Source of the DNA: Escherichia phage ESSI2_ev015 | Strand: one strand, 5' to 3' | Length of the DNA stretch: 30,584 nucleotides | Sequence record: NC_049395.1 | Shown here: one piece after another, positions 1-30,584 of the stretch | Layout: every line of letters begins with the position of its first letter | Position numbering within the stretch: the stretch's first letter is position 1 | Notes under the pieces: generated by a model | Database searches by the model: none | What the model saw: only the letters and a program-made list of their open reading frames with translations | What the model was told of the DNA's origin: nothing | Made by a program: the position numbers and the translations under genes

Positions 1-15
1 TAGACACGCGTAAGA

Positions 16-48
16 TCGTCGGCAGCGTCAGATGTGTATAAGAGACAG
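16..48 (+). other. Illumina Nextera/Tn5 read-1 adapter with 19-bp mosaic end (library artefact at contig start)
   Basis: Exact string TCGTCGGCAGCGTCAGATGTGTATAAGAGACAG read directly at 16-48; known synthetic adapter sequence. Bases 1-48 should not be treated as biological. Confidence 0.85.
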
Positions 49-200
49 GTAGCGCCGTTTTTGTCTGCGAAAGATTTATTTTGTCGGTGCATCGCTGCGC
101 CAGCGCAGCGCCATGCGCACGATCTTTTATGTGTGTTGCGTTGGGTTAATTTGTTGCCTGAAGTGCTGAGGGCGCGTTCTGCTGCGTATGAGGATGGGTA

Positions 201-224
201 TAAAAAAGCCCGCATTATGCGGGC
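201..224 (-). terminator. Rho-independent terminator ending the late (tail) operon
   Basis: Perfect 7-bp stem GCCCGCA/TGCGGGC with 3-nt loop at 208-224, followed on the - strand by a U-run (plus AAAAAA 202-207); lies just downstream of the stop of the 567-aa gene. Confidence 0.6.
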
Positions 225-236
225 GTATGGTCATGG

Positions 237-1940
237 TCAGGCAATTATATTCTGGTACTTGCTCCGGGTCTGCCCGGCTTTCGTCGCCGTCTGTGTAAAC
301 TCGGCGGCATTGGTTGGAGTCCCAACGGTGGGGTGTGAATGGTTCGCGCATTGCTGCGCCAGTTCTGCCAGTAAATCAATAGTGTCCAGCATCATGGTCA
401 GGGCGTTGATACTCTCGCTGCCAATATGGACAGTTGCCCCCATGACCTGCTGACCGCCAGCGGCCACTGATTTACGCAGTGCGGCAATCTTCTCTGTCAG
501 GCTTTCGCCAACCTCCACGGCTACAGCACCGCCCACTTTAGTGGACTGCTGTCCTGCTATGTCCGTTTCTTCGTTTCCTTCAATACTGGCCAGCCTGTTT
601 CCTTTCACCGCCTGGCTATAATCACCGGCGCTTACCTGCTGGATGGCTCCGGCCAGCAGTGTGGCGGTTCCCAGTACCGTGGTTTTATCCGTGGCTTTCA
701 CCGTGGTTTCACGGCTGACCAGTTCGCGCTGTTCCGTATCGGCTTTTACGGTTCGCGCCATCGATGTTTCGCTGATGGTCTGATCGGTCTGCCTTACCCA
801 GTCGCCCGCCTGAGTCACCCTCTGGGATACTTCTTCCCGCTGCTGCTGCAACTGTTCACCGGGTTTAACGTCCGGCAGACTGGTGCCATCCGGTAGCGTC
901 TGCCTGATAAAAGGTTTATCCGGTCTGCCTCCCGTGAATGCAACCTCAACCAGCGTCCCTTCTGGCGGAAACTGAAACATACCTGAATCATTCCCGGCCA
1001 TTGGTACCGGCAGCGGCACCGCTGAATAAACAGGCGTCTGATTGTCCGGGTTTCCGTCTGCGTCAAGCAGCTGCACGTCCACGGCGTAACGTGGCCGAAA
1101 GGGATCGGCAAAGTTACCGCTTTTTACCGGCTCTGAATGCGCCACGACTCTGGCCATCTTTGGCAAATGAAGCCCGGATGCCAGTTCCGGGTAATGGCTT
1201 TCAATCTGCCGTTGCGCCGGTGTTTTCTGCAAAGGTTTACCCGTTGCGCGGTTTCTCGGCGTCCATGTGATCGCCATCGTGTCATTAGTCAGGTGAACTT
1301 TAGTCACGCGTTCACCGTTCATCTCCACCCCTGGCCGCATAGTCTGGATCACTGGTAATGTCACAGAGTTACCGCCAGCAGCCCCCTGGCTGAACTCTGA
1401 CGGGATTTCTACGTGACGACCGGCAAACAATGACTTTTCTGCGCCGCCGACGTAAAGCGAACCATCAGGCAACTGGTACCAGATGTAATCCAGGATACTG
1501 AACGCCCTGCCCAGATTGTTCAGCAACTGATAACCAGTACCGTTATGGGTAAAATGTGGGATGGGGGTATCGCTGTACTGTGCATCAGGCACACTGACCG
1601 TGATCCCGCTGTTTTCTTCCAACCAGCCCGCAATTTCACGCAAAGTCGGGTGTTGAAACGAACATGGCCACATCCTTTCAAACACACCTACCAGCTCACG
1701 AATGAACAGACGCTGAAAACCGTTTTCTGCGGGCTGCGATCGCTCCACATACCCCGTAAACCAGCGCAAAAGCAGATCGGTATACCCCACATCCAGCCGC
1801 ACCAGTTTTCCGGTGTAATCGGTTGTTGTCTCTGCGGTGATGAAGCCCCGGCCGCAGCTGTTCAGCTCCAGTACCAGGCTGGCATCCACCAGGTGAACTT
1901 CATCCGTTGAAAGGTAAAGGCGTTTTACTGGTTTCATCAT
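237..1940 (-). CDS. Putative baseplate hub/central spike fusion (gpD+gpV-like, VgrG-like)
   Basis: 567 aa, last gene of late operon. Residues ~310-345 (MFQFPPEGTLVEVAFTGGRPDKPFI) resemble the gpV/gp5 OB-fold spike motif; helical C-terminal region ends in HSHPTVGTPTN (His-containing tip). Start ATG overlaps stop of upstream gene by 1 nt. Assignment by motif and position, not by search. Confidence 0.45.
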   Translation of the reverse strand: MMKPVKRLYLSTDEVHLVDASLVLELNSCGRGFITAETTTDYTGKLVRLDVGYTDLLLRWFTGYVERSQPAENGFQRLFIRELVGVFERMWPCSFQHPTLREIAGWLEENSGITVSVPDAQYSDTPIPHFTHNGTGYQLLNNLGRAFSILDYIWYQLPDGSLYVGGAEKSLFAGRHVEIPSEFSQGAAGGNSVTLPVIQTMRPGVEMNGERVTKVHLTNDTMAITWTPRNRATGKPLQKTPAQRQIESHYPELASGLHLPKMARVVAHSEPVKSGNFADPFRPRYAVDVQLLDADGNPDNQTPVYSAVPLPVPMAGNDSGMFQFPPEGTLVEVAFTGGRPDKPFIRQTLPDGTSLPDVKPGEQLQQQREEVSQRVTQAGDWVRQTDQTISETSMARTVKADTEQRELVSRETTVKATDKTTVLGTATLLAGAIQQVSAGDYSQAVKGNRLASIEGNEETDIAGQQSTKVGGAVAVEVGESLTEKIAALRKSVAAGGQQVMGATVHIGSESINALTMMLDTIDLLAELAQQCANHSHPTVGTPTNAAEFTQTATKAGQTRSKYQNIIA

Positions 1941-2485
1941 TAACCCAAAGCATCATTGACGGGCTTCAGCACTTTGCGTTCAAACCACGTCAGTTTTTCT
2001 TCATCTTCTCCGGCAGACTGGCCACCGGACTGTCCCACACTACCGGCAGTCTGTTTTTTTGCGGTCGTCTTACCTGTTGCCCTGGCCTCTCGCTTTTCCT
2101 GCACGCTGATATGTTCCGCCAGTGTGAATGTCACCAGCCAGGCCATTTTCCCGTCCTGCTGGGGTGCATCCAGCATTCCGCTGAACGTTGCTTCACGAAA
2201 ATTAACAGCACGGGCAACTTCATGCGCCACTCGGTACTTCTGACGATTACCACTGGCATCGGTAGCACTGGCCAGTTCAAAAATACGCTTCAGTATTTCA
2301 GGCTGTTTAAAAGGTATTTCACCGCTGATCCGCAGTTCCTTTCCCTTTGCTCCCTGCTCTGATTTTGTTGTGGCACTGGTCTGGCCGGACTGATCTTTAT
2401 CCTGAAATTGCTGTGAAACAGTCACCCGCATGTTTTTCAGCTGGATGGCTTCGCCATTAAGCGCCAGTGTCGGGATCGAAGTCAT
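1940..2485 (-). CDS. Uncharacterized late-operon protein (181 aa)
   Basis: ATG with AAGGGA Shine-Dalgarno upstream; overlaps upstream ORF by 29 nt and downstream gene by 1 nt (translationally coupled). No motif I can assign. Confidence 0.5.
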   Translation of the reverse strand: MTSIPTLALNGEAIQLKNMRVTVSQQFQDKDQSGQTSATTKSEQGAKGKELRISGEIPFKQPEILKRIFELASATDASGNRQKYRVAHEVARAVNFREATFSGMLDAPQQDGKMAWLVTFTLAEHISVQEKREARATGKTTAKKQTAGSVGQSGGQSAGEDEEKLTWFERKVLKPVNDALG

Positions 2486-3182
2486 GAATCATTCCCTTTA
2501 TTCCATCAAGATTATCGCCAACCAGCATCATGGCAGCTGTGTAAACGGCAGACTGCTGCGGAATGTCCTTCACCAGTTCCAGTAACGTGGTACCGGTGTC
2601 TCCGCTGGCAGTAAAAACCCACGCTCTGGCACTCTTCCCCTGTAAATCATTCAGGCCGCTGGCCACATCACTGATAAGCTGGTCACGCAGCTGCGTGAAC
2701 TCGCCCAGCTGTTTTTTCAGCCCTTCGATATCAAACCCGGCACCCGCCGCCTTTTGTGCCTGGCTGATTGCCGCAGCAGATAAAGCTGCCCTGCTGGTTG
2801 GTACAGACAGCGGAATGGACGCAGGTAACGCAGCGGCGGTTTTCGCAGGGATCTGCATCTTTTCAATAGCCAGCGCTGCGGCGGATTGCGCCAGCCGTTT
2901 GACCTGCATGAATGCCGGGGCGGGGAAAATCCCGACCAGGTTATTCAGGCTGGCCATAAAGTTTTCCTGCGTCTGTCCGGTGACCATCATAATCACCACA
3001 TCCGCATTCCCCCCTGTTCCGGCCAGGCGTTCAGCAAGATAGCGAACGGCATTAACCGGGCTGAGATATGCCCCGTTCGCTGTCTGCTGTCCCAGCCCAT
3101 AAATCCACGGATGCGCAGGGACGATCGAACAGTTCAGCGCAGCAACAGAATCCGTGAAGGCCAGACGTGCTTCACGCCACAT
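2457..3182 (-). CDS. Uncharacterized late-operon protein (~241 aa)
   Basis: Track ORF 2457-3218; internal ATG at 3182 (MWREARL...) preferred because it has a GGAGG Shine-Dalgarno and overlaps the tail-fibre-assembly stop by only ~11 nt. No recognisable motif. Confidence 0.45.
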   Translation of the reverse strand: MWREARLAFTDSVAALNCSIVPAHPWIYGLGQQTANGAYLSPVNAVRYLAERLAGTGGNADVVIMMVTGQTQENFMASLNNLVGIFPAPAFMQVKRLAQSAAALAIEKMQIPAKTAAALPASIPLSVPTSRAALSAAAISQAQKAAGAGFDIEGLKKQLGEFTQLRDQLISDVASGLNDLQGKSARAWVFTASGDTGTTLLELVKDIPQQSAVYTAAMMLVGDNLDGIKGMIHDFDPDTGA

Positions 3183-3759
3183 TTCCGGGCACCTCCGGCC
3201 ACACAATTTCCGGCGCATCTTCCGGTTGAATACGGTTCAGTAAAACGCGGTATTTTTTCCATGCGGTAAGCAGCAGTGCTTCTTCTTCGGTCGCCATGTC
3301 TAAATCAACGGCATCCTGCAATGTGGCAATAGCGTCATTGGCCTGTTTAAGCAGTCTTTTCTTTTCGGCGTCTGCCTCGCTGACTAATGCAATTCGCATG
3401 GCCTCCGCATCATCCACCCACGCCTTACCATTCCATTTTTGCCAGGCATTAGCCGGTGCTAACGTGGTTGTCCCTTCCGGGTAAGCGCCTGGCTCGGTGA
3501 TCACCAGTTCATTACCGTTTTCTGTATCAAACACCACCTCACCACGATGATCCTCACGGGAAATCCATCTTTGCTTCTCTGAATCAAAAATTGCCACAAA
3601 CCCCGCTTTGTTTACCGGTGGTTTTATTGTGGTGCAGTTGGCTGGCAGTCCGGTATGCGCAGGTATAAAAGCGTCACCCGAACCAATAAATTCATTCGTG
3701 TCTGAACGCAGGTTATAAACAGTAACTGTTTGATCGGTTTCACTCATTTTAAAAGTCAT
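3172..3759 (-). CDS. Tail fibre assembly chaperone (Tfa/gpG-like)
   Basis: 195 aa directly after the tail fibre gene with TAATG stop/start overlap; size, position and C-terminal region typical of tail fibre assembly proteins. Confidence 0.65.
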   Translation of the reverse strand: MTFKMSETDQTVTVYNLRSDTNEFIGSGDAFIPAHTGLPANCTTIKPPVNKAGFVAIFDSEKQRWISREDHRGEVVFDTENGNELVITEPGAYPEGTTTLAPANAWQKWNGKAWVDDAEAMRIALVSEADAEKKRLLKQANDAIATLQDAVDLDMATEEEALLLTAWKKYRVLLNRIQPEDAPEIVWPEVPGNVA

Positions 3760-5333
3760 TATGCGAGTCTCACTATGTAGTTAAATGCAATGTTCTTAAC
3801 GGTCGTTTCTGCGTTGCCCGACGCGGCAATGGTTATTACATGACTGTGTTCACCTATTGCTACAGTATGAGAATGAGCACCAATACCTACGGTATGATTG
3901 TGTGCGCCAATACCTACTGTATGAGCATGGTTGCCAGCCGACCCCGTATTACCAGTTGTTACGTTATCGCCGCCCTGACCTCTATTGATATCCCCGTTTT
4001 GAGTGGCCTGCCCCTTAACATATGTATGTGTATGCGCACCAGTCGTATTCGTTGTTTTGGTTCCGTAGTCAAATGTACTGGTGGTTTTAGTACCGTAATC
4101 AAATGATGATGTTGCTTTTGTCCCCAAATCCGTACTGGATGCACTGGCGGTGTGGGCATGGGATTTATTGCCATCATCTTCATAGGAGAGAACTGCGCGG
4201 CCGTCTGGTTTCCCTTTGATTGTCTGGCGGCGCATGTCAGTAATAACACCCGATGGATACGCAGCAGCTAGCAAAGGATATGCCGCCGTATTAAAAGACT
4301 GCCCCTGCATAATTGCCCATCCAGTAGGTGGGATATCTGTTGGCCATGGAAGCGGCACACCAACCGGCAGAACGTCACTGCGACTTAAAACGGCCAGTTC
4401 ACCCAGATCCAGACTTTTTCTTGCTTTTACCTTATCGTTAACATCAGCAAGGTTTGCATCCTTACGCAAAAAATCGCTGCTGGCCTGCTGTTCTCCCAGG
4501 CTACCTTTTGGCCGTAAATCCGTGATGTTGCCATCCACATCAATGCTGGCCACAGCAAACACATAATGCTGAACTCCGTTCTGAACGTAATCAGCAAGGT
4601 TTGCAGCCACCGTGATTTTGCTCTGCACATTCCAGACACTGATCAGCGTCCCTGTCCAGCACACATCCAGCCAGACTTTTACCGGCTTTGTCGTCACCGT
4701 AATATTCTGATTCGCAGCCAGTGACGCACGAAGTCCAGCCACATACCCCGTGCCTTTCGTGACAAAAAACTGATTGCCGGTTTTGGCTACCAGATACCCG
4801 TTACCAAAAAACGCCGCCGCGCCATAAATATCTATATTTTCCAGGCGCTGGCGCTCATCCATTCCGGCCATACGCGCAGTAAAATCAATCTGCCAGGTTT
4901 CAGCGGGTGTATTAATCCCGGTTTCCGTTTGTGCGCCGTTGTACTCCATCAGAAACGAGCGGGTCAGCACGTTCCCCTGTTGCCCTTCTTTTGTTTTCAG
5001 TTTCTGCTGTGATGGTGCATGGACAATCATTGCCAGCGTACCGCTGGCCTTATTTAGCAGACCGATCCAGTTAAAGCTGAAATCACCCACATCTGCGCCC
5101 AGTACTACGGAATAGACCACCCCGTTTTCATTCACCACACCCGTGCGGGTAACAGACTGCCGGTGAACAATCTGTGCTGTCGGGGGCAACGCTTCATTGC
5201 GGTCAACAGGTGTATCCGGGTTTAAATTCGGCACACTGGCAAAAACAAATTCGTCCAGTAGTACCGGTTCACCCGTTGCACCCTGCTGTGCTTTCCAGTT
5301 TTCAAACGCCAGTGTGATGGCTGTCTGTGACAT
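3759..5333 (-). CDS. Tail fibre protein
   Basis: 524 aa; C-terminal tandem peptide repeats ([15 protein letters not shown] x3; [14 protein letters not shown] x3) rich in His/Gly/Thr, typical of phage tail fibre distal regions; follows baseplate genes. Confidence 0.75.
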
Positions 5334-11423: not shown

Positions 11424-12547
11424 GCTGTGGCCTCCAGACTCGCATCCAGTAACAGACTGATGGTGATTTGCAGCGGCACTTCCCAGGTGCGCACCACAAT
11501 GTAAATATCCACCGCCTTTTTGTTTTTCCAGACAATGGTCACATCACCATCCTGCGGCGGCTTCACCTCTCCCGGAAATGACACACCGTTAATGCTGGCC
11601 GCAGTGGACATTTCACGCAGTGGACGGGCAAACAGTGTCTGATGTGCGGCGATACTTCCCGGCGTGCTGTTCAGCGAGCGATCCGCGATTTTGCTGATAG
11701 CCAGCAGACGAACACGGCGGGCAGCTTTATCCGCAACGCGCAGTGTTTCAATCGACTGGTAATCACCGCCCTCAACATCCAGCGTGCGGCCATCAGCCCA
11801 GTAAAAACCGTCATAATCCGGGTACCACATCGGCACACTGAAACGCTGTGCTTCAAGCGCCTGAAGTGTGGCCAGTTCCAGCACTTCTCCGGTACCATCA
11901 ACCGGCATTTCATCACTGCCCAGATTCATCAGAGCACCGGTTTTAACCCGCGCCGGACTGTCAGCAATGGTTACAGCGCGGCTACACAGGCGACCAGCCA
12001 GCACGCCCGGTTCATTTCCCCACAGGCGGGGAACCAGCTGCACCGCCTTTTCTGCAATACCATCCTGAAGGGTGGCCATGCGTACCAGATAATCCGCCTG
12101 TGCTTCTTCATCCTGCATTCCCTGTGCGGCCAGGATGAACCACACCCAGCGGCCATACTTTGAAATCAGGGTGGATCGTAACGTCACGGCCTGATTTACC
12201 TGCGCTTTAGCGGTCACATCGTCAGACAGCACCACGCCTTCCACAGAGCACACCACCTGCGCGGCCAGAACCGCTTTCACCCAGGCATCTGCCTCCGCAT
12301 CAGCTGGCAGGACGTGAATGAACCCCCACCAGTTCTGGCCAGCGTTCGCCAGCGCAGCCAGAACATCATTTTTCAGCGGGCTGGCTTCCTCGCCCAGCAG
12401 TGAATCAAAATCACTCTGGACATTCACCGCCAGCGTTTTCCCAACATTTTTGGTACCCGTACCGATAAACAGCAGTGTGCGTTCCACCTCATTGGTTTCA
12501 CCCAACAGCTGATTTACCTGGTTTACGGTCACAATTGGCCAGGTCAT
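11420..12547 (-). CDS. Tail sheath protein (putative)
   Basis: 375 aa, sheath-like size, between tail completion genes and tube; ATGA coupling at both ends. Confidence 0.5.
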   Translation of the reverse strand: MTWPIVTVNQVNQLLGETNEVERTLLFIGTGTKNVGKTLAVNVQSDFDSLLGEEASPLKNDVLAALANAGQNWWGFIHVLPADAEADAWVKAVLAAQVVCSVEGVVLSDDVTAKAQVNQAVTLRSTLISKYGRWVWFILAAQGMQDEEAQADYLVRMATLQDGIAEKAVQLVPRLWGNEPGVLAGRLCSRAVTIADSPARVKTGALMNLGSDEMPVDGTGEVLELATLQALEAQRFSVPMWYPDYDGFYWADGRTLDVEGGDYQSIETLRVADKAARRVRLLAISKIADRSLNSTPGSIAAHQTLFARPLREMSTAASINGVSFPGEVKPPQDGDVTIVWKNKKAVDIYIVVRTWEVPLQITISLLLDASLEATA

Positions 12548-26324: not shown

Positions 26325-26354
26325 TGTTTGCCTCTCCCTAATCCGTAGGATGGA

Positions 26355-26576
26355 TTACGCGTTAAGCGAAATATTGCATTCGCTTAACGCTTCAACGGTC
26401 AGAGCGGCCATGTTTATTTCCACACGGCCTTTAGGCATTTCTCCTTTGCCACGAATAGGCAGACGGCCATCCCGGATCATGTCACGGGCTGTGCTTTCAG
26501 CTGTATTCGTTAATTTGCACCACTCTTTAAGTGGTAGATAAGGGGCTGGGATGGTGATTGTAATGTTAGGACGCAT
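26355..26576 (-). CDS. Apl/Cox-like small HTH protein (excision/switch regulator)
   Basis: 73 aa, first gene of the early operon, divergent from the repressor; helix-turn-helix-like segment KEWCKLTNTAESTARDMIRDGRLP. Confidence 0.5.
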   Translation of the reverse strand: MRPNITITIPAPYLPLKEWCKLTNTAESTARDMIRDGRLPIRGKGEMPKGRVEINMAALTVEALSECNISLNA

Positions 26577-26710
26577 AAGGCAAACTCCCGTATTCGGTTG
26601 AATGCAGCAACATTCAACAACATTCGATTTAAACTACAACACGGAGAGACTCTACTTCGACTTAATCGAGAAATCAACAGTATTTCGATTTAATCGAGAG
26701 AGCTAGCGAT
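26577..26710. promoter_or_regulatory. Immunity switch region (divergent early/lysogenic promoters and operators)
   Basis: 134-bp intergenic region between divergent apl-like and cI-like genes; three copies of TTCGAYTTAA (26623, 26656, 26684), two extended to 16-bp repeats TTCGA(C/T)TTAATCGAGA with near-palindromic core; tandem 10-bp repeat CAACATTC(A/G)A at 26608-26627. Confidence 0.5.
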
Positions 26711-27298
26711 ATGAGCAAATTCCCTTTTGAGCAGATAGGGCACAGCAGCGACGTGCTTGATCGAGTAGTAGAGGCTTACGGCTTCACTTCAAAGCTACAG
26801 CTTGCGGAACATTTCGATATGGCCTCAAGTAGCCTTTCCGCAAGGTTTAAACGAGGAATATTCCCGGCTGATATGGTGGTTCGCTGCGTAGCAGAAACCG
26901 GGGCGTCTCTTGAGTGGCTATCTACTGGCCAGGGGAAGAAATTCGATGATGATCAGTTAGACATCATGAAATTTCCCCGTAAAAAATTAGTTGATGGCCA
27001 GCTCTATGACTCTGGTTACGCAATGTTCGATAAAGTTTTTTTCAGGGCAGGAGCGCCACTCCCCGCAGCACCTTTCTGCGTACTAGATGAAAAAGCGCAG
27101 TACATCCTAGACCAGAAATTTTCCGAGGTTTTTGATGGCGAATGGCTGGTAAATATCGAAGGAAAAACCAGTATCAGAACGCTGACACGCATCCCGGTAA
27201 AAAAGGTACGCGTCAGTGGTGTTGGCATGGCTTTTGACTGTGGGCTGGAAGATATCGAAATTATCGGCCGCGTGGTCATGACGATAACAAACGCATAA
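26711..27298 (+). CDS. cI: CI-like immunity repressor
   Basis: 195 aa (186 CI is ~192 aa as I recall), immediately upstream of and overlapping int (TAATG); divergent from the early operon. Confidence 0.6.
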   Translation: MSKFPFEQIGHSSDVLDRVVEAYGFTSKLQLAEHFDMASSSLSARFKRGIFPADMVVRCVAETGASLEWLSTGQGKKFDDDQLDIMKFPRKKLVDGQLYDSGYAMFDKVFFRAGAPLPAAPFCVLDEKAQYILDQKFSEVFDGEWLVNIEGKTSIRTLTRIPVKKVRVSGVGMAFDCGLEDIEIIGRVVMTITNA

Positions 27299-28359
27299 TG
27301 GGCATCAGAAAACAGCCGGACGGGAAATGGTTGCTGGACTTTTACCCGGAAGGAAAACCCCAGGGAAAAGCCAGCAAGCGCATCCGCAAGACGTTCTCCA
27401 CCAAAGGCGAGGCGCTAGCCTACCAAAATCACATTATGGAAAACGTCCATGTAAAGCCCTGGCTTGACGGTAAAGAGGATCGGAGAAAGCTACGCGACTT
27501 AGTAAACCAATGGTTCGATGAACATGGTGTGACGCTTGACGATGGCGAAAAACGTAAAGGCGCAATGGAATTTGCGTGTCAAAGCATGGGTGATCCGCTG
27601 GCGCATGAATTTGACGCCACGATGTTTTCGCTTTATCGCAAAAAACGTTTATCCGGTGAAATATCCAGAACAGCGCGTGTAAAACAAGTCGCTCCCAGAA
27701 CCATGAATTTAGAACTGGCCTATTTTCGTGCCGTGTTTAATGAGCTTAAGCGCTTAGGACATTGGAAATCTGAAAACCCCCTGTCTAACGTTCGCCCCTT
27801 TAAATCTGAGGAAGCTGAACTGGCTTATTTGGAACATGATGAAATCGAACGATTGTTATCCGAATGTTCGAAAAGTCGAAACGCCAGCACTTACTGGGTT
27901 GCATGTTTATGCCTGATAACCGGCGCTCGCTGGGATGAAGCGGAATCATTAACGACTAAGCAAATCAGAAACCTAAAAGTCAGCTTTTTTAAAACTAAAG
28001 GGAACAGGAACAGAACTGTTCCAATCAGCCAGGACTTTTATGACGCATTGCCGAAACCAGAAAAACCAGGGCGTTTTTTTACACCCTGCTATTCGGCCTT
28101 TCGCAAAGCCGTAGAGCGTGCGGAACTCGACTTACCTGATGGCCAATTGTCACATGTGCTACGACACACTTTCGCCAGTCACTTTATGATGAACGGCGGG
28201 AACATTCTGGTTTTAAAAGAGATACTGGGACACACTGACATTAAAATGACCATGCGTTACGCGCATTTCGCTCCAAGCCATTTGCAGGAAGCCATAACGC
28301 TAAACCCTTTGGGACAAAATGCCCCTTTTCTGTCCCCTCAGGACTCAAACATCCAATAA
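27298..28359 (+). CDS. int: Tyrosine-type integrase
   Basis: 353 aa; C-terminal catalytic region HVLRHTFASHFMMNGGNILVLKEILGHTDIKMTMRYAHF (R...H-x-x-R...Y signature); adjacent to the att core. Confidence 0.9.
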   Translation: MGIRKQPDGKWLLDFYPEGKPQGKASKRIRKTFSTKGEALAYQNHIMENVHVKPWLDGKEDRRKLRDLVNQWFDEHGVTLDDGEKRKGAMEFACQSMGDPLAHEFDATMFSLYRKKRLSGEISRTARVKQVAPRTMNLELAYFRAVFNELKRLGHWKSENPLSNVRPFKSEEAELAYLEHDEIERLLSECSKSRNASTYWVACLCLITGARWDEAESLTTKQIRNLKVSFFKTKGNRNRTVPISQDFYDALPKPEKPGRFFTPCYSAFRKAVERAELDLPDGQLSHVLRHTFASHFMMNGGNILVLKEILGHTDIKMTMRYAHFAPSHLQEAITLNPLGQNAPFLSPQDSNIQ

Positions 28360-28432
28360 CATTCAATAATATTCGTTGTGTAACTTTCTGATTTATCTGT
28401 AAGTTATTGTTTTTAAATGATGGTGCATCGTT

Positions 28433-28477
28433 CTCATAATCGCTTGGTCGCTGGTTCAAGTCCAGCAGGGGCCACCA
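28433..28477 (+). tRNA. 3' 45-nt fragment of a tRNA-Ile (CAU anticodon, ileX/ileY-like) = prophage att core copy
   Basis: CTCATAATCGCTTGGTCGCTGGTTCAAGTCCAGCAGGGGCCACCA: anticodon loop, T-arm (GGTTCAAGTCC) and acceptor 3' strand with CCA, but no 5' half upstream; matches my recollection of E. coli tRNA-Ile2. 74 bp downstream of the int stop. Confidence 0.6.
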
Positions 28478-28506
28478 AATTTTAGCTTTAAAATCATATA
28501 ATTAAA

Positions 28507-28531
28507 CCACTTCTAACGGAGTGGTTTTTTT
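28507..28531 (+). terminator. Rho-independent terminator downstream of the tRNA fragment
   Basis: Hairpin CCACTTC-taac-GGAGTGG followed by TTTTTTT. Confidence 0.55.
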
Positions 28532-28695
28532 GTTTATAGTGGTCAGTGTCCCCTTTTTGTCCCCTCACTTTCACCCACACTCATCTATACCTCAGTTGTT
28601 AGCACTTCACCGAACCATGACGATTGAACGCTTTGCGCTTTTTTTACATACTGTTTCAATCTCATTTGCCAATAATTTTTAGTCAGGATGACAAT

Positions 28696-29322
28696 ATGAC
28701 TTCGTACAATGAACTGAAAGAATGTATCCGCCTTGAAGTCATTGGCCATGACAAATCCTTTTCATGGCGTAAAGCGTTACTTCGTACCCGACGCAACCAG
28801 AAGAAGCACTTCCTGTTCTGGTGGCGTATTGCTTCATGGCTCTATGCCCAGAATAGTAAGTTCAAAAAGCGCATTGCCCGCAGGATTGAAAACCGCCTCA
28901 AGTACCGGCACAGCGTTGATATTTCGCTGTCATGCAAAATCGGCAAGGGTTTAAACATTGCTCATCTAAACGGCATTGTGATTACTGACAATTGCGTGAT
29001 TGGTGATTTCGCCGACCTGAAGCAAGGCATCACCATAGGGTTACGCACCGACAGTGCCGACGCGATGATAGTCATTGGTGATCGTGTTGATATTGGCTGT
29101 AACTCGTCCATTCTGGGCGGCAAGGTTACGATCGGAAACAATGTCACCATTGGTGCGCATTCGCTAGTGCTTCAGAACATCCCCAGCGACACCGTTTATA
29201 AAAACAAGATCACGCCAGTGTATACATCCAAACTACCGCAGACGGAATATCAGGAAAAGCAGCCTTTTGTCACTGGCAATGCGACAAAAGAAGCGTCCCG
29301 TTCCGCAGAAGCAGTGCTGTAA
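28696..29322 (+). CDS. Hexapeptide-repeat acetyltransferase, serine acetyltransferase (CysE/WcaB)-like
   Basis: Track start is TTG; ATG at 28696 with AGGATGA upstream. Left-handed beta-helix hexapeptide repeats (IGKGLNIAHLNGIVITDNCVIGDFADLKQGITIG...) preceded by a WRIASWLY-type helix as in the CysE family; low-GC region. Confidence 0.65.
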   Translation: MTSYNELKECIRLEVIGHDKSFSWRKALLRTRRNQKKHFLFWWRIASWLYAQNSKFKKRIARRIENRLKYRHSVDISLSCKIGKGLNIAHLNGIVITDNCVIGDFADLKQGITIGLRTDSADAMIVIGDRVDIGCNSSILGGKVTIGNNVTIGAHSLVLQNIPSDTVYKNKITPVYTSKLPQTEYQEKQPFVTGNATKEASRSAEAVL

Positions 29323-29531
29323 TTTCGCTGAACAAATTTCAGTTGTGAAGATTTCATAAATTTACGTGCAGCCCGCGCCAGTTCTTACAAGCGGGCTTAT
29401 CTCTATAATCTCTGGCTTACCACGATCCACACCGCCTAAAATCTAAAGTTGATATGCAGCCTATGAGGATAGATAATCAGTTTGTGGCTTGTTTTACGTT
29501 ATAACTAAATCTTATTAAAAGAGGTATTTAA

Positions 29532-29846
29532 ATGAACTTAAACAATAACCCTACAGTAAGCCAACTCTCACAACTAATCTCTGTTTGCGACGATAACGCA
29601 GGTCATCATATTCTTTGGGTATCTAAATCTGGCGATGTAGCAGTTACACAAATAAATGATTTGTCTCCAATTGGCTTTGAAGAAAACACCCCATCAATGG
29701 CAATGCGTTATGAAACTTTCCAACGTGGAAATGACTATGTTGGAAAAAATGCAGCAGAAGATGCAACTCACATGGAAAGACTACTTAGAGATTTGCTAAA
29801 CGAATGGCCATTATATAACGGCAATCGTGTACGGTACATTGGCTAA
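29532..29846 (+). CDS. Hypothetical protein (104 aa), first gene of an AT-rich two-gene cassette
   Basis: ATG with AAGAGG Shine-Dalgarno; AT-rich codon usage distinct from the prophage; no recognisable motif. Confidence 0.5.
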   Translation: MNLNNNPTVSQLSQLISVCDDNAGHHILWVSKSGDVAVTQINDLSPIGFEENTPSMAMRYETFQRGNDYVGKNAAEDATHMERLLRDLLNEWPLYNGNRVRYIG

Positions 29847-29861
29847 TAAAAAAGGTGGGGT

Positions 29862-30230
29862 ATGGCAACCAATTGTTATGTAAGAGTTTTAGATAATAAC
29901 ACTAAACGTGTCTATGATGTTGGGCCATTTATTAATAGCGGTAATGAGGCCTTCTCTGGAGCAGATAGCGCCATAAATTGGATTTACAAACAAATTGGCT
30001 TAGTCAAAATACAATATCCAGAATCAACTTTAATAAAGCATAAATGGGATTATGTTAAAGATGATTTTTATGGCCCTACTGCTGATGTAAAAGTTGAAAT
30101 ATCAAACTTTATTTTTGAGATTTTTAAACTGCTACCTGCTGACACTCAAAATGTAATTAATGAACAAATTACAGATAATTTGCCCACATGGTACAAAGAT
30201 GAAAAAGAAAGTCATATTGATGAAAATTGA
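29862..30230 (+). CDS. Hypothetical protein (122 aa), second gene of the AT-rich cassette
   Basis: ATG 15 nt after the upstream stop with AAGGTGG Shine-Dalgarno; no recognisable motif. Confidence 0.5.
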   Translation: MATNCYVRVLDNNTKRVYDVGPFINSGNEAFSGADSAINWIYKQIGLVKIQYPESTLIKHKWDYVKDDFYGPTADVKVEISNFIFEIFKLLPADTQNVINEQITDNLPTWYKDEKESHIDEN

Positions 30231-30300
30231 TTACCTATTGGCGCACTTAAAGTGTAGGTATGCTAATTTCACTTTCTGAATTTAATCTAATCCCCCTAAA

Positions 30301-30331
30301 ACCCGCACCACAACTGGCATTGCGGGTTTTT
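30301..30331 (+). terminator. Possible terminator after the two-gene cassette
   Basis: Stem ACCCGCA/TGCGGGT with a long 13-nt loop followed by TTTTT, ~70 nt after the stop at 30230; loop length is atypical. Confidence 0.3.
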
Positions 30332-30584
30332 CCTCCTACACATTGCCTTCGACATTTGATCTTCTCCACTCCACAAAAAATACAATTTATTATTGTATTT
30401 CAATTGCTTGCCTTTCCACTTAGATCCTTTACAGATCCTCTAAACTGAAAAATGCTGAAATTCTTTTCAATCTTTTCAGTTCCTGTTCTTTGGCAAGCAG
30501 CCAACCGTGGCGCGGTCTGGCGGTGCTGTTTGTAGAAAAATAAAACTGAAAAAATTTCCAGATCCAGAAACCGCAGGCGGGTGC

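Follow-up and report, generated by a model that had tools for sequence, protein, structure and literature searches.

The first 48 bases of the window, by which we mean the whole 30,584-nucleotide stretch of Escherichia phage ESSI2_ev015 (NC_049395.1) analysed here, are synthetic Illumina Nextera DNA: a P5 tail and the i5 index 517 come first, and the primer site of read 1 and the mosaic end of Tn5 follow. What follows them is very probably a near-complete cos-to-cos genome, lacking about 3 nt (GGT) and with a single attP in a tRNA-Ile; together with the Nextera artefact, this is the best joint explanation of the window. The window represents the excised or virion form of an ESSI2-like temperate phage of the P2 family and not a truncated prophage. 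The adapter at its start is an ordinary artefact, with no new biology attached to it.

Synthetic DNA at the left end of the window

The window opens with tagacacgcgtaaga TCGTCGGCAGCGTCAGATGTGTATAAGAGACAG gtagcgcc..., and TCGTCGGCAGCGTCAGATGTGTATAAGAGACAG (window 16-48) matches exactly the 33-nt Nextera read-1 adapter and mosaic end, just as the earlier note had proposed. The 33-nt match is unique in the window when either strand is searched with up to 3 mismatches, and it was obtained with none of 100 shuffles (0/100). Its 19-nt mosaic end (30-48) is also an exact and unique match, with none expected by chance. The wider claim of the earlier note, that the first ~48 nt are an untrimmed library artefact, likewise stands and gains from the bases upstream of the adapter, which hold the index 517 at 8-15 and the tail of P5 at 4-7. 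A published table gives the Nextera i5 primer 517 as ...GAGATCTACAC-GCGTAAGA-TCGTCGGCAGCGTC (PMC8225968), and the 3' 48 nt of this primer, mosaic end included, are identical to bases 1-48 at 46 of the 48 positions, the mismatches being bases 2 and 3. Compared with the Illumina Nextera or Nextera XT i5 primer 517 plus mosaic end, window 4-48 agrees at every base with the primer's 3' end followed by the mosaic end, and the sole departure from the primer concerns two of bases 1-3, which read TAG in place of the TCT expected from P5. These differences are probably read-end errors. Adapter screening, which the earlier note had suggested for the assembly, was positive in the window at 1-48 only, and no other P5, P7, read-2 or mosaic-end piece lies elsewhere in the window. 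A match to a TruSeq 13-mer with 2 mismatches, at 12178, was dismissed as chance. An internal chimera was rejected because the adapter is terminal and the window contains no other adapter piece. The adapter has the orientation of a read-2 read-through and lies at the very end of the sequence, a position seen in many contaminated GenBank records. The coordinates of the adapter parts and of the phage features discussed below are collected in Table 1.

Table 1. Coordinates of adapter-derived and phage features in the window
Feature	Position	Strand	Basis or remark
P5 flow-cell remnant	1..7	+	4-7 (ACAC) are the last four P5 bases
Nextera i5 index 517 (GCGTAAGA), 8 nt	8..15	+	Primer list (PMC8225968); same string in unrelated records
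Nextera read-1 sequencing-primer site (TCGTCGGCAGCGTC)	16..29	+	Exact adapter match
Tn5 mosaic end, 19 bp (AGATGTGTATAAGAGACAG)	30..48	+	Unique exact match
Spurious ORF, 139 aa	34..453	+	GTG start inside the mosaic end; no Pfam family
First genuine phage bases, GTAG	49..52	+	Last 4 nt of the 15-nt GCGGGTGCGGTGTAG, putative cohesive end
Tyrosine integrase (Int_N, Phage_integrase)	27298..28359	+	Pfam; attP core 73 nt downstream
attP core	28433..28477	+	Same sequence as the 3' 45 nt of tRNA-Ile, which begin at the anticodon loop CTCATAA (CUCAUAA; CAU anticodon) and run to CCA
Right contig end, GCGGGTGC	30577..30584	+	First 8 nt of the putative cos stretch; natively followed by GGT, then base 49

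Comparison with native DNA also sets the first 48 bases apart from the phage. A search of 5,426 complete E. coli genomes finds them in none, and the adapter string is matched at 100% identity by 26 phage records from unrelated hosts, which include Vibrio, Acinetobacter, Bacillus, Paenibacillus and Listeria, as well as many coliphages. Three of the 26 (Vibrio JSF5, Vibrio JSF6 and Acinetobacter TAC1) share the prefix ACAC+GCGTAAGA with the window. The boundary between bases 48 and 49 is exact: the alignments of all E. coli chromosome homologues, and that of Cronobacter phage ESSI-2, begin at base 49. The string that spans the junction of adapter and genome has no match in viral, genome or metagenome contig collections. 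It could be argued that a real Tn5/IS50 end has inserted into the phage at bases 30-48, as the 19-bp sequence derives from Tn5 ends. The mosaic end, however, is an engineered hybrid of the outside and inside ends of Tn5 and not a natural sequence. Upstream of it in the window come the P5 tail, a kit index and the synthetic primer site of read 1, neither a transposase nor a second inverted end is found in the window, and the 5,426 E. coli genomes yield 0 matches. With bases 1-29 being primer sequence, a single mosaic end and no transposon body, we reject a natural Tn5/IS50 insertion outright.

The ends of the window abut in the phage genome

The earlier note concluded from the adapter that the left prophage junction, the second att copy and the intact tRNA lie outside the window. 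This amounts to an integrated prophage that lost its left part, attL included, where the contig broke at the adapter. It is true that the tRNA-Ile 3' fragment beside the integrase resembles a prophage junction and that the window is without an intact tRNA. However, the order of the phage DNA is not that of a prophage. L003, a P2-family prophage located between mntR and mntS in E. coli MFDS1019527, is collinear with the window as a circular permutation: window 49-27273 aligns with L003 6144-32382, and window 28595-29446 and 30423-30584 align with L003 5082-6140, directly to the left of L003 6144, the last base of the window mapping in L003 3 nt before window base 49. The junction reads ...ACCGCAGGCGGGTGC GGT GTAGCGCCGTTTTTG... 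in this prophage, and E. coli EH09-18-41 reads the same; across the join, prophages L003 and L001 both have ...GCAGGCGGGTGC-GGT-GTAGCGCC.... Moreover, the join is seen in an independent library. In the Logan contig L090 (SRR31487342), window 28452-30584, present at 2133/2133 identity, leads through GGT into window 49-4940, and there is no adapter in this contig at the junction of the window ends. The earlier note had named 1-48 found contiguous with the genome in independent libraries as the outcome that would speak against an artefact; the opposite is seen here, as this library joins the right end to base 49 without the adapter. This contig also encodes a protein identical to the 567-aa product of window 237-1940, and the phage in this independent library is essentially that of the window.

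The DNA to the left of base 49 is, therefore, the window's own right end, with only GGT (~3 nt) missing. As its order is that of the prophage circularly permuted, the window is an excised or virion form of the phage. A truncated prophage is also contradicted by what follows the tRNA fragment on its right, namely phage cargo, which runs straight into base 49 in prophages and in the independent assembly. Both window ends are phage DNA, with no host gene at either of them, and the integrated copies that have the identical integrase turn into host DNA directly after 28477. We thus find a prophage broken at the adapter hardly credible.

The tRNA-Ile fragment, flanked in the window by the integrase and phage cargo genes, is an attP by virtue of this position. 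The window has one copy of the tRNA-derived core, where an integrated prophage would present two direct att copies. Neither ARAGORN nor Rfam (gathering thresholds) calls a tRNA or any other RNA in the window, the tRNA-Ile piece being a fragment of no more than 45 nt. An exact-protein look-up places the identical integrase on 23 contigs of public assemblies, some of which carry integrated copies. The integrated copies match the window up to ...GGGGCCACCA and continue as bacterial DNA, the divergence falling directly after CCA, into host DNA or another island. In a Kluyvera intermedia prophage homology ends at window 28480, and the short-read contigs of lysogens break within the tRNA-Ile core. 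Bases 28433-28477 are the single attP core, and the window would be expected to contain neither an intact tRNA nor another att copy. Since the integrated copies diverge after GGGGCCACCA, the intact tRNA of a lysogen would adjoin window 28433 and would not lie to the left of base 1. The earlier note was thus right that the second att copy and the tRNA are absent from the window, but not in its reason, because the window ends abut and attP is single; the adapter is not the cause. Set against the tRNA-targeting attP of tyrosine integrases of P2/P4 type, the core of the window corresponds to the 3' 45 nt of tRNA-Ile, lies directly downstream of int and occurs once. It is separate from the adapter and concerns us here only for having been mistaken for a prophage junction. 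At high DNA identity the integrase region is present in no complete E. coli genome of the collection, and the closest integrase among species-representative genomes is that of Kluyvera intermedia (92% aa). On some contigs with the identical integrase, the same tRNA also carries, beside the phage, either a CP4-type island or a second P2-like prophage. One integrated-copy contig has a neighbourhood that, by its Pfam content, seems to resemble the ileX region on the E. coli map.

Adapters, contig ends and a putative cos site

Both ends of the reference sequence of Cronobacter phage ESSI-2 (HQ110083) are the 15-mer GCGGGTGCGGTGTAG, and the native sequence at the putative cos reads GCAG-GCGGGTGCGGTGTAG-CGCC. 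It is at this place that related assemblies end or carry adapters. ESSI2_ev129 (LR597640.1) starts with AC-AGAGTAGA (index 504) and the adapter, followed by GTAGCGCC, the junction being the same as that of the window, and at its other end ...GCAGGCG is followed by the adapter in reverse complement. In ESSI2_ev040 (LR597638.1) the adapter is internal (29624-29665) and sits between ...GGGTGC and GTGTAGCGCC. The right end of ESSI2_ev239 (LR597637.1; 29127-29203) consists of ...GCAGGCGGGGGC, the read-2 adapter, an i7 index, P7 and poly-A, and its left end (1-115) is extended by a 115-nt chimeric copy of its own 5096-5210, which at the same place argues for a dead end there also. In all, four phages that were assembled separately contribute seven contig ends or adapter junctions to a single stretch of 15-19 nt in genomes of ~30 kb, which argues for a physical DNA end, and the adapters found there carry at least two different i5 indexes (504 and 517). 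In line with a cos-packaged genome, the contig ends fall on the termini of the group's reference phage (ESSI-2) and recur across independent assemblies. The window most likely breaks at the cos terminus of DNA packaged in linear form.

An alternative is that the contamination is real and its position arbitrary, a circular or circularly permuted genome having been opened at random where an adapter tip was attached. Tn5 needs duplex on both sides, and a junction at a true end would be unexpected; in addition, internal adapters exist in other records, such as those of Peduovirus P22H1 (1297-1329) and Acinetobacter phage TAC1. A random opening, however, sits badly with seven ends or junctions of four assemblies in one stretch of 15-19 nt, with the involvement of at least two i5 indexes (504, 517), with the ESSI-2 reference having its termini in the same stretch, and with the left end of ev239 being extended by its own 5096-5210 at the same place. 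We consider an arbitrary position quite unlikely and favour a cos terminus.

How the adapter would have reached the assembly, and why it would have survived at this spot, can be pictured as follows. With a short insert, read 2 would run through into the i5 side, which would give the observed order and orientation of the adapter, and the adapter would be left unclipped or only partly clipped before assembly. Where a contig comes to a dead end, adapter-bearing reads would be the sole extension available and the assembler would keep the adapter, whereas away from dead ends the genomic path would outcompete the rare adapter-bearing k-mers. The adapter would then be retained because the contig stops at a true dead end, where the adapter-bearing read is the only extension. 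This dead end is most likely the cos terminus of the linear packaged DNA of an ESSI2-like P2-family temperate phage. Both the route, by read-through and incomplete clipping, and the part played by the cos ends in the survival of the adapter at this spot are what we infer from these patterns, whereas the analysis shows directly what the adapter is, where it stops (48|49), that the window ends abut and that the att site has the attP form. The published pipeline used for the relatives trimmed read 2 from TGTAGATCTCGG... on and no earlier, and passed the reads to SPAdes for assembly (PMC6969025); clipping only from TGTAGATCTCGG would leave the reverse complement of the i5 index and the read-1 adapter in read-through reads. 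The same paper names a TruSeq kit, and the clipping sequences that it lists are those of Nextera (PMC6969025). The adapter residues in the phage records of that paper are Nextera, despite the TruSeq kit named there.

The exact positions of the junctions allow a more tentative reading. The ESSI-2 repeat, extended by 1 base on the left and 3 on the right, gives the 19-mer GGCGGGTGCGGTGTAGCGC, and the cosL of P2 is GGCGAGGCGGGGAAAGCAC; both are G+C-rich, both start with GGCG, and they agree at 11/19 positions by hand count. A point against the cos reading is that Tn5 is unable to tag a free DNA end, so that the junctions fall within the putative cohesive stretch, away from its edge. Junctions inside the putative overhang would best be accounted for if Tn5 had acted on cos ends that were annealed and nicked, a plausible reading that has to assume annealed cos ends during tagmentation. 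All seven ends or junctions lie inside GGCGGGTGCGGTGTAGCGC, and two recurrent positions, one where right ends follow GCGGGTGC and one where a left junction precedes GTGTAGC, fit insertion of Tn5 9 bp from the nicks of an annealed, 19-nt, P2-like 5' overhang; the window's own junction is 2 nt off the position predicted by this offset. It is possible, although we lean slightly against it, that the adapters left in these assemblies in this way mark where the cohesive ends of the phage group lie. We also infer a drop in coverage at the putative cos, together with the length and polarity of its overhang. The map position is a further point against: in P2, cos adjoins the portal gene Q, whereas the putative site here lies, as in ESSI-2, between cargo genes and the tail-spike-like gene and tail module.

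Just inside the left end, window 93-119 contains a G+C-rich repeat with a period of ~11 nt (CGCAGCGCCA-like, 2.3 copies), which is expanded in the MFDS1019527 prophage (L003 6190-6230). It might bind terminase, as a cosB-like element would, or simply be prone to slippage. As for other records, Nextera adapters are still held by the deposited ev129, ev040 and ev239 sequences and by their RefSeq copies (NC_049392 to NC_049394). The adapter is also present in Lambda_4C10, ev207, ev099, Lambda_ev066, ev017 and Lambda_ev203, from the same project; in Peduovirus P22H1, also of this project, the adapter at 1297-1329 falls within an annotated terminase CDS.

Affiliation of the phage and use of the record

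The phage belongs to the Peduoviridae, the P2 family, and is close to Quadragintavirus. An annotated prophage collinear with the window at 84-96% identity has gpM, the P2-family capsid, the GPO scaffold, terminase, portal, ogr and the replication endonuclease; it is through this prophage that the head, terminase, tail and replication genes of the P2 family are recognized in the window. Escherichia phages ESSI2_ev129 and ESSI2_ev040 have been placed in the Peduoviridae, genus Quadragintavirus (Mathieu et al., 2020; PMC6969025). Identity with ESSI2_ev040 is 98% over window 241-26327, and with ESSI2_ev129 it is 97.9% over window 13-3000, a figure that includes adapter bases 13-48. The window shares with ev129 and ev040 the gene order and adapters left at the same genomic spot, but differs from them in the i5 index (517 vs 504) and in the immunity, integrase and cargo region. 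The att sites also differ, being an attP in tRNA-Ile in the window and lying between mntR and mntS in close E. coli prophages. The phage is a mosaic, as its repressor, integrase and cargo region (window 26330-30230) is unlike that of ESSI2_ev040.

Three cargo genes lie between attP and cos (window 28624-30230). One codes for a hexapeptide-repeat acetyltransferase, annotated as a serine acetyltransferase in relatives, and the other two ORFs (104 and 122 aa) belong to no Pfam family. Relatives carry different cargo at this position, either an AAA ATPase or an acyltransferase. At the other side, the gene nearest the left end (window 237-1940, minus strand) codes for 567 aa with only weak matches to Phage_base_V and the Gp5_C repeat, and is followed by a strong terminator-like hairpin at 208-224. 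Its product is annotated as hypothetical in all relatives and may be the central tail spike.

For the use of this sequence, it follows that bases 1-48 are to be trimmed and that the ORF starting at base 34 is not to be annotated. The window is to be treated as a near-complete virion-form genome with one attP, and this status alters the reading of findings on junctions, att sites and tRNA fragments in it. ESSI2_ev129, ev040, ev239 and other phages share the contamination in their deposited and RefSeq records, and curators may wish to correct it. If leftover adapters do map cohesive ends, adapter-capped ends in Nextera assemblies of phages could serve as a free marker of the cos terminus.
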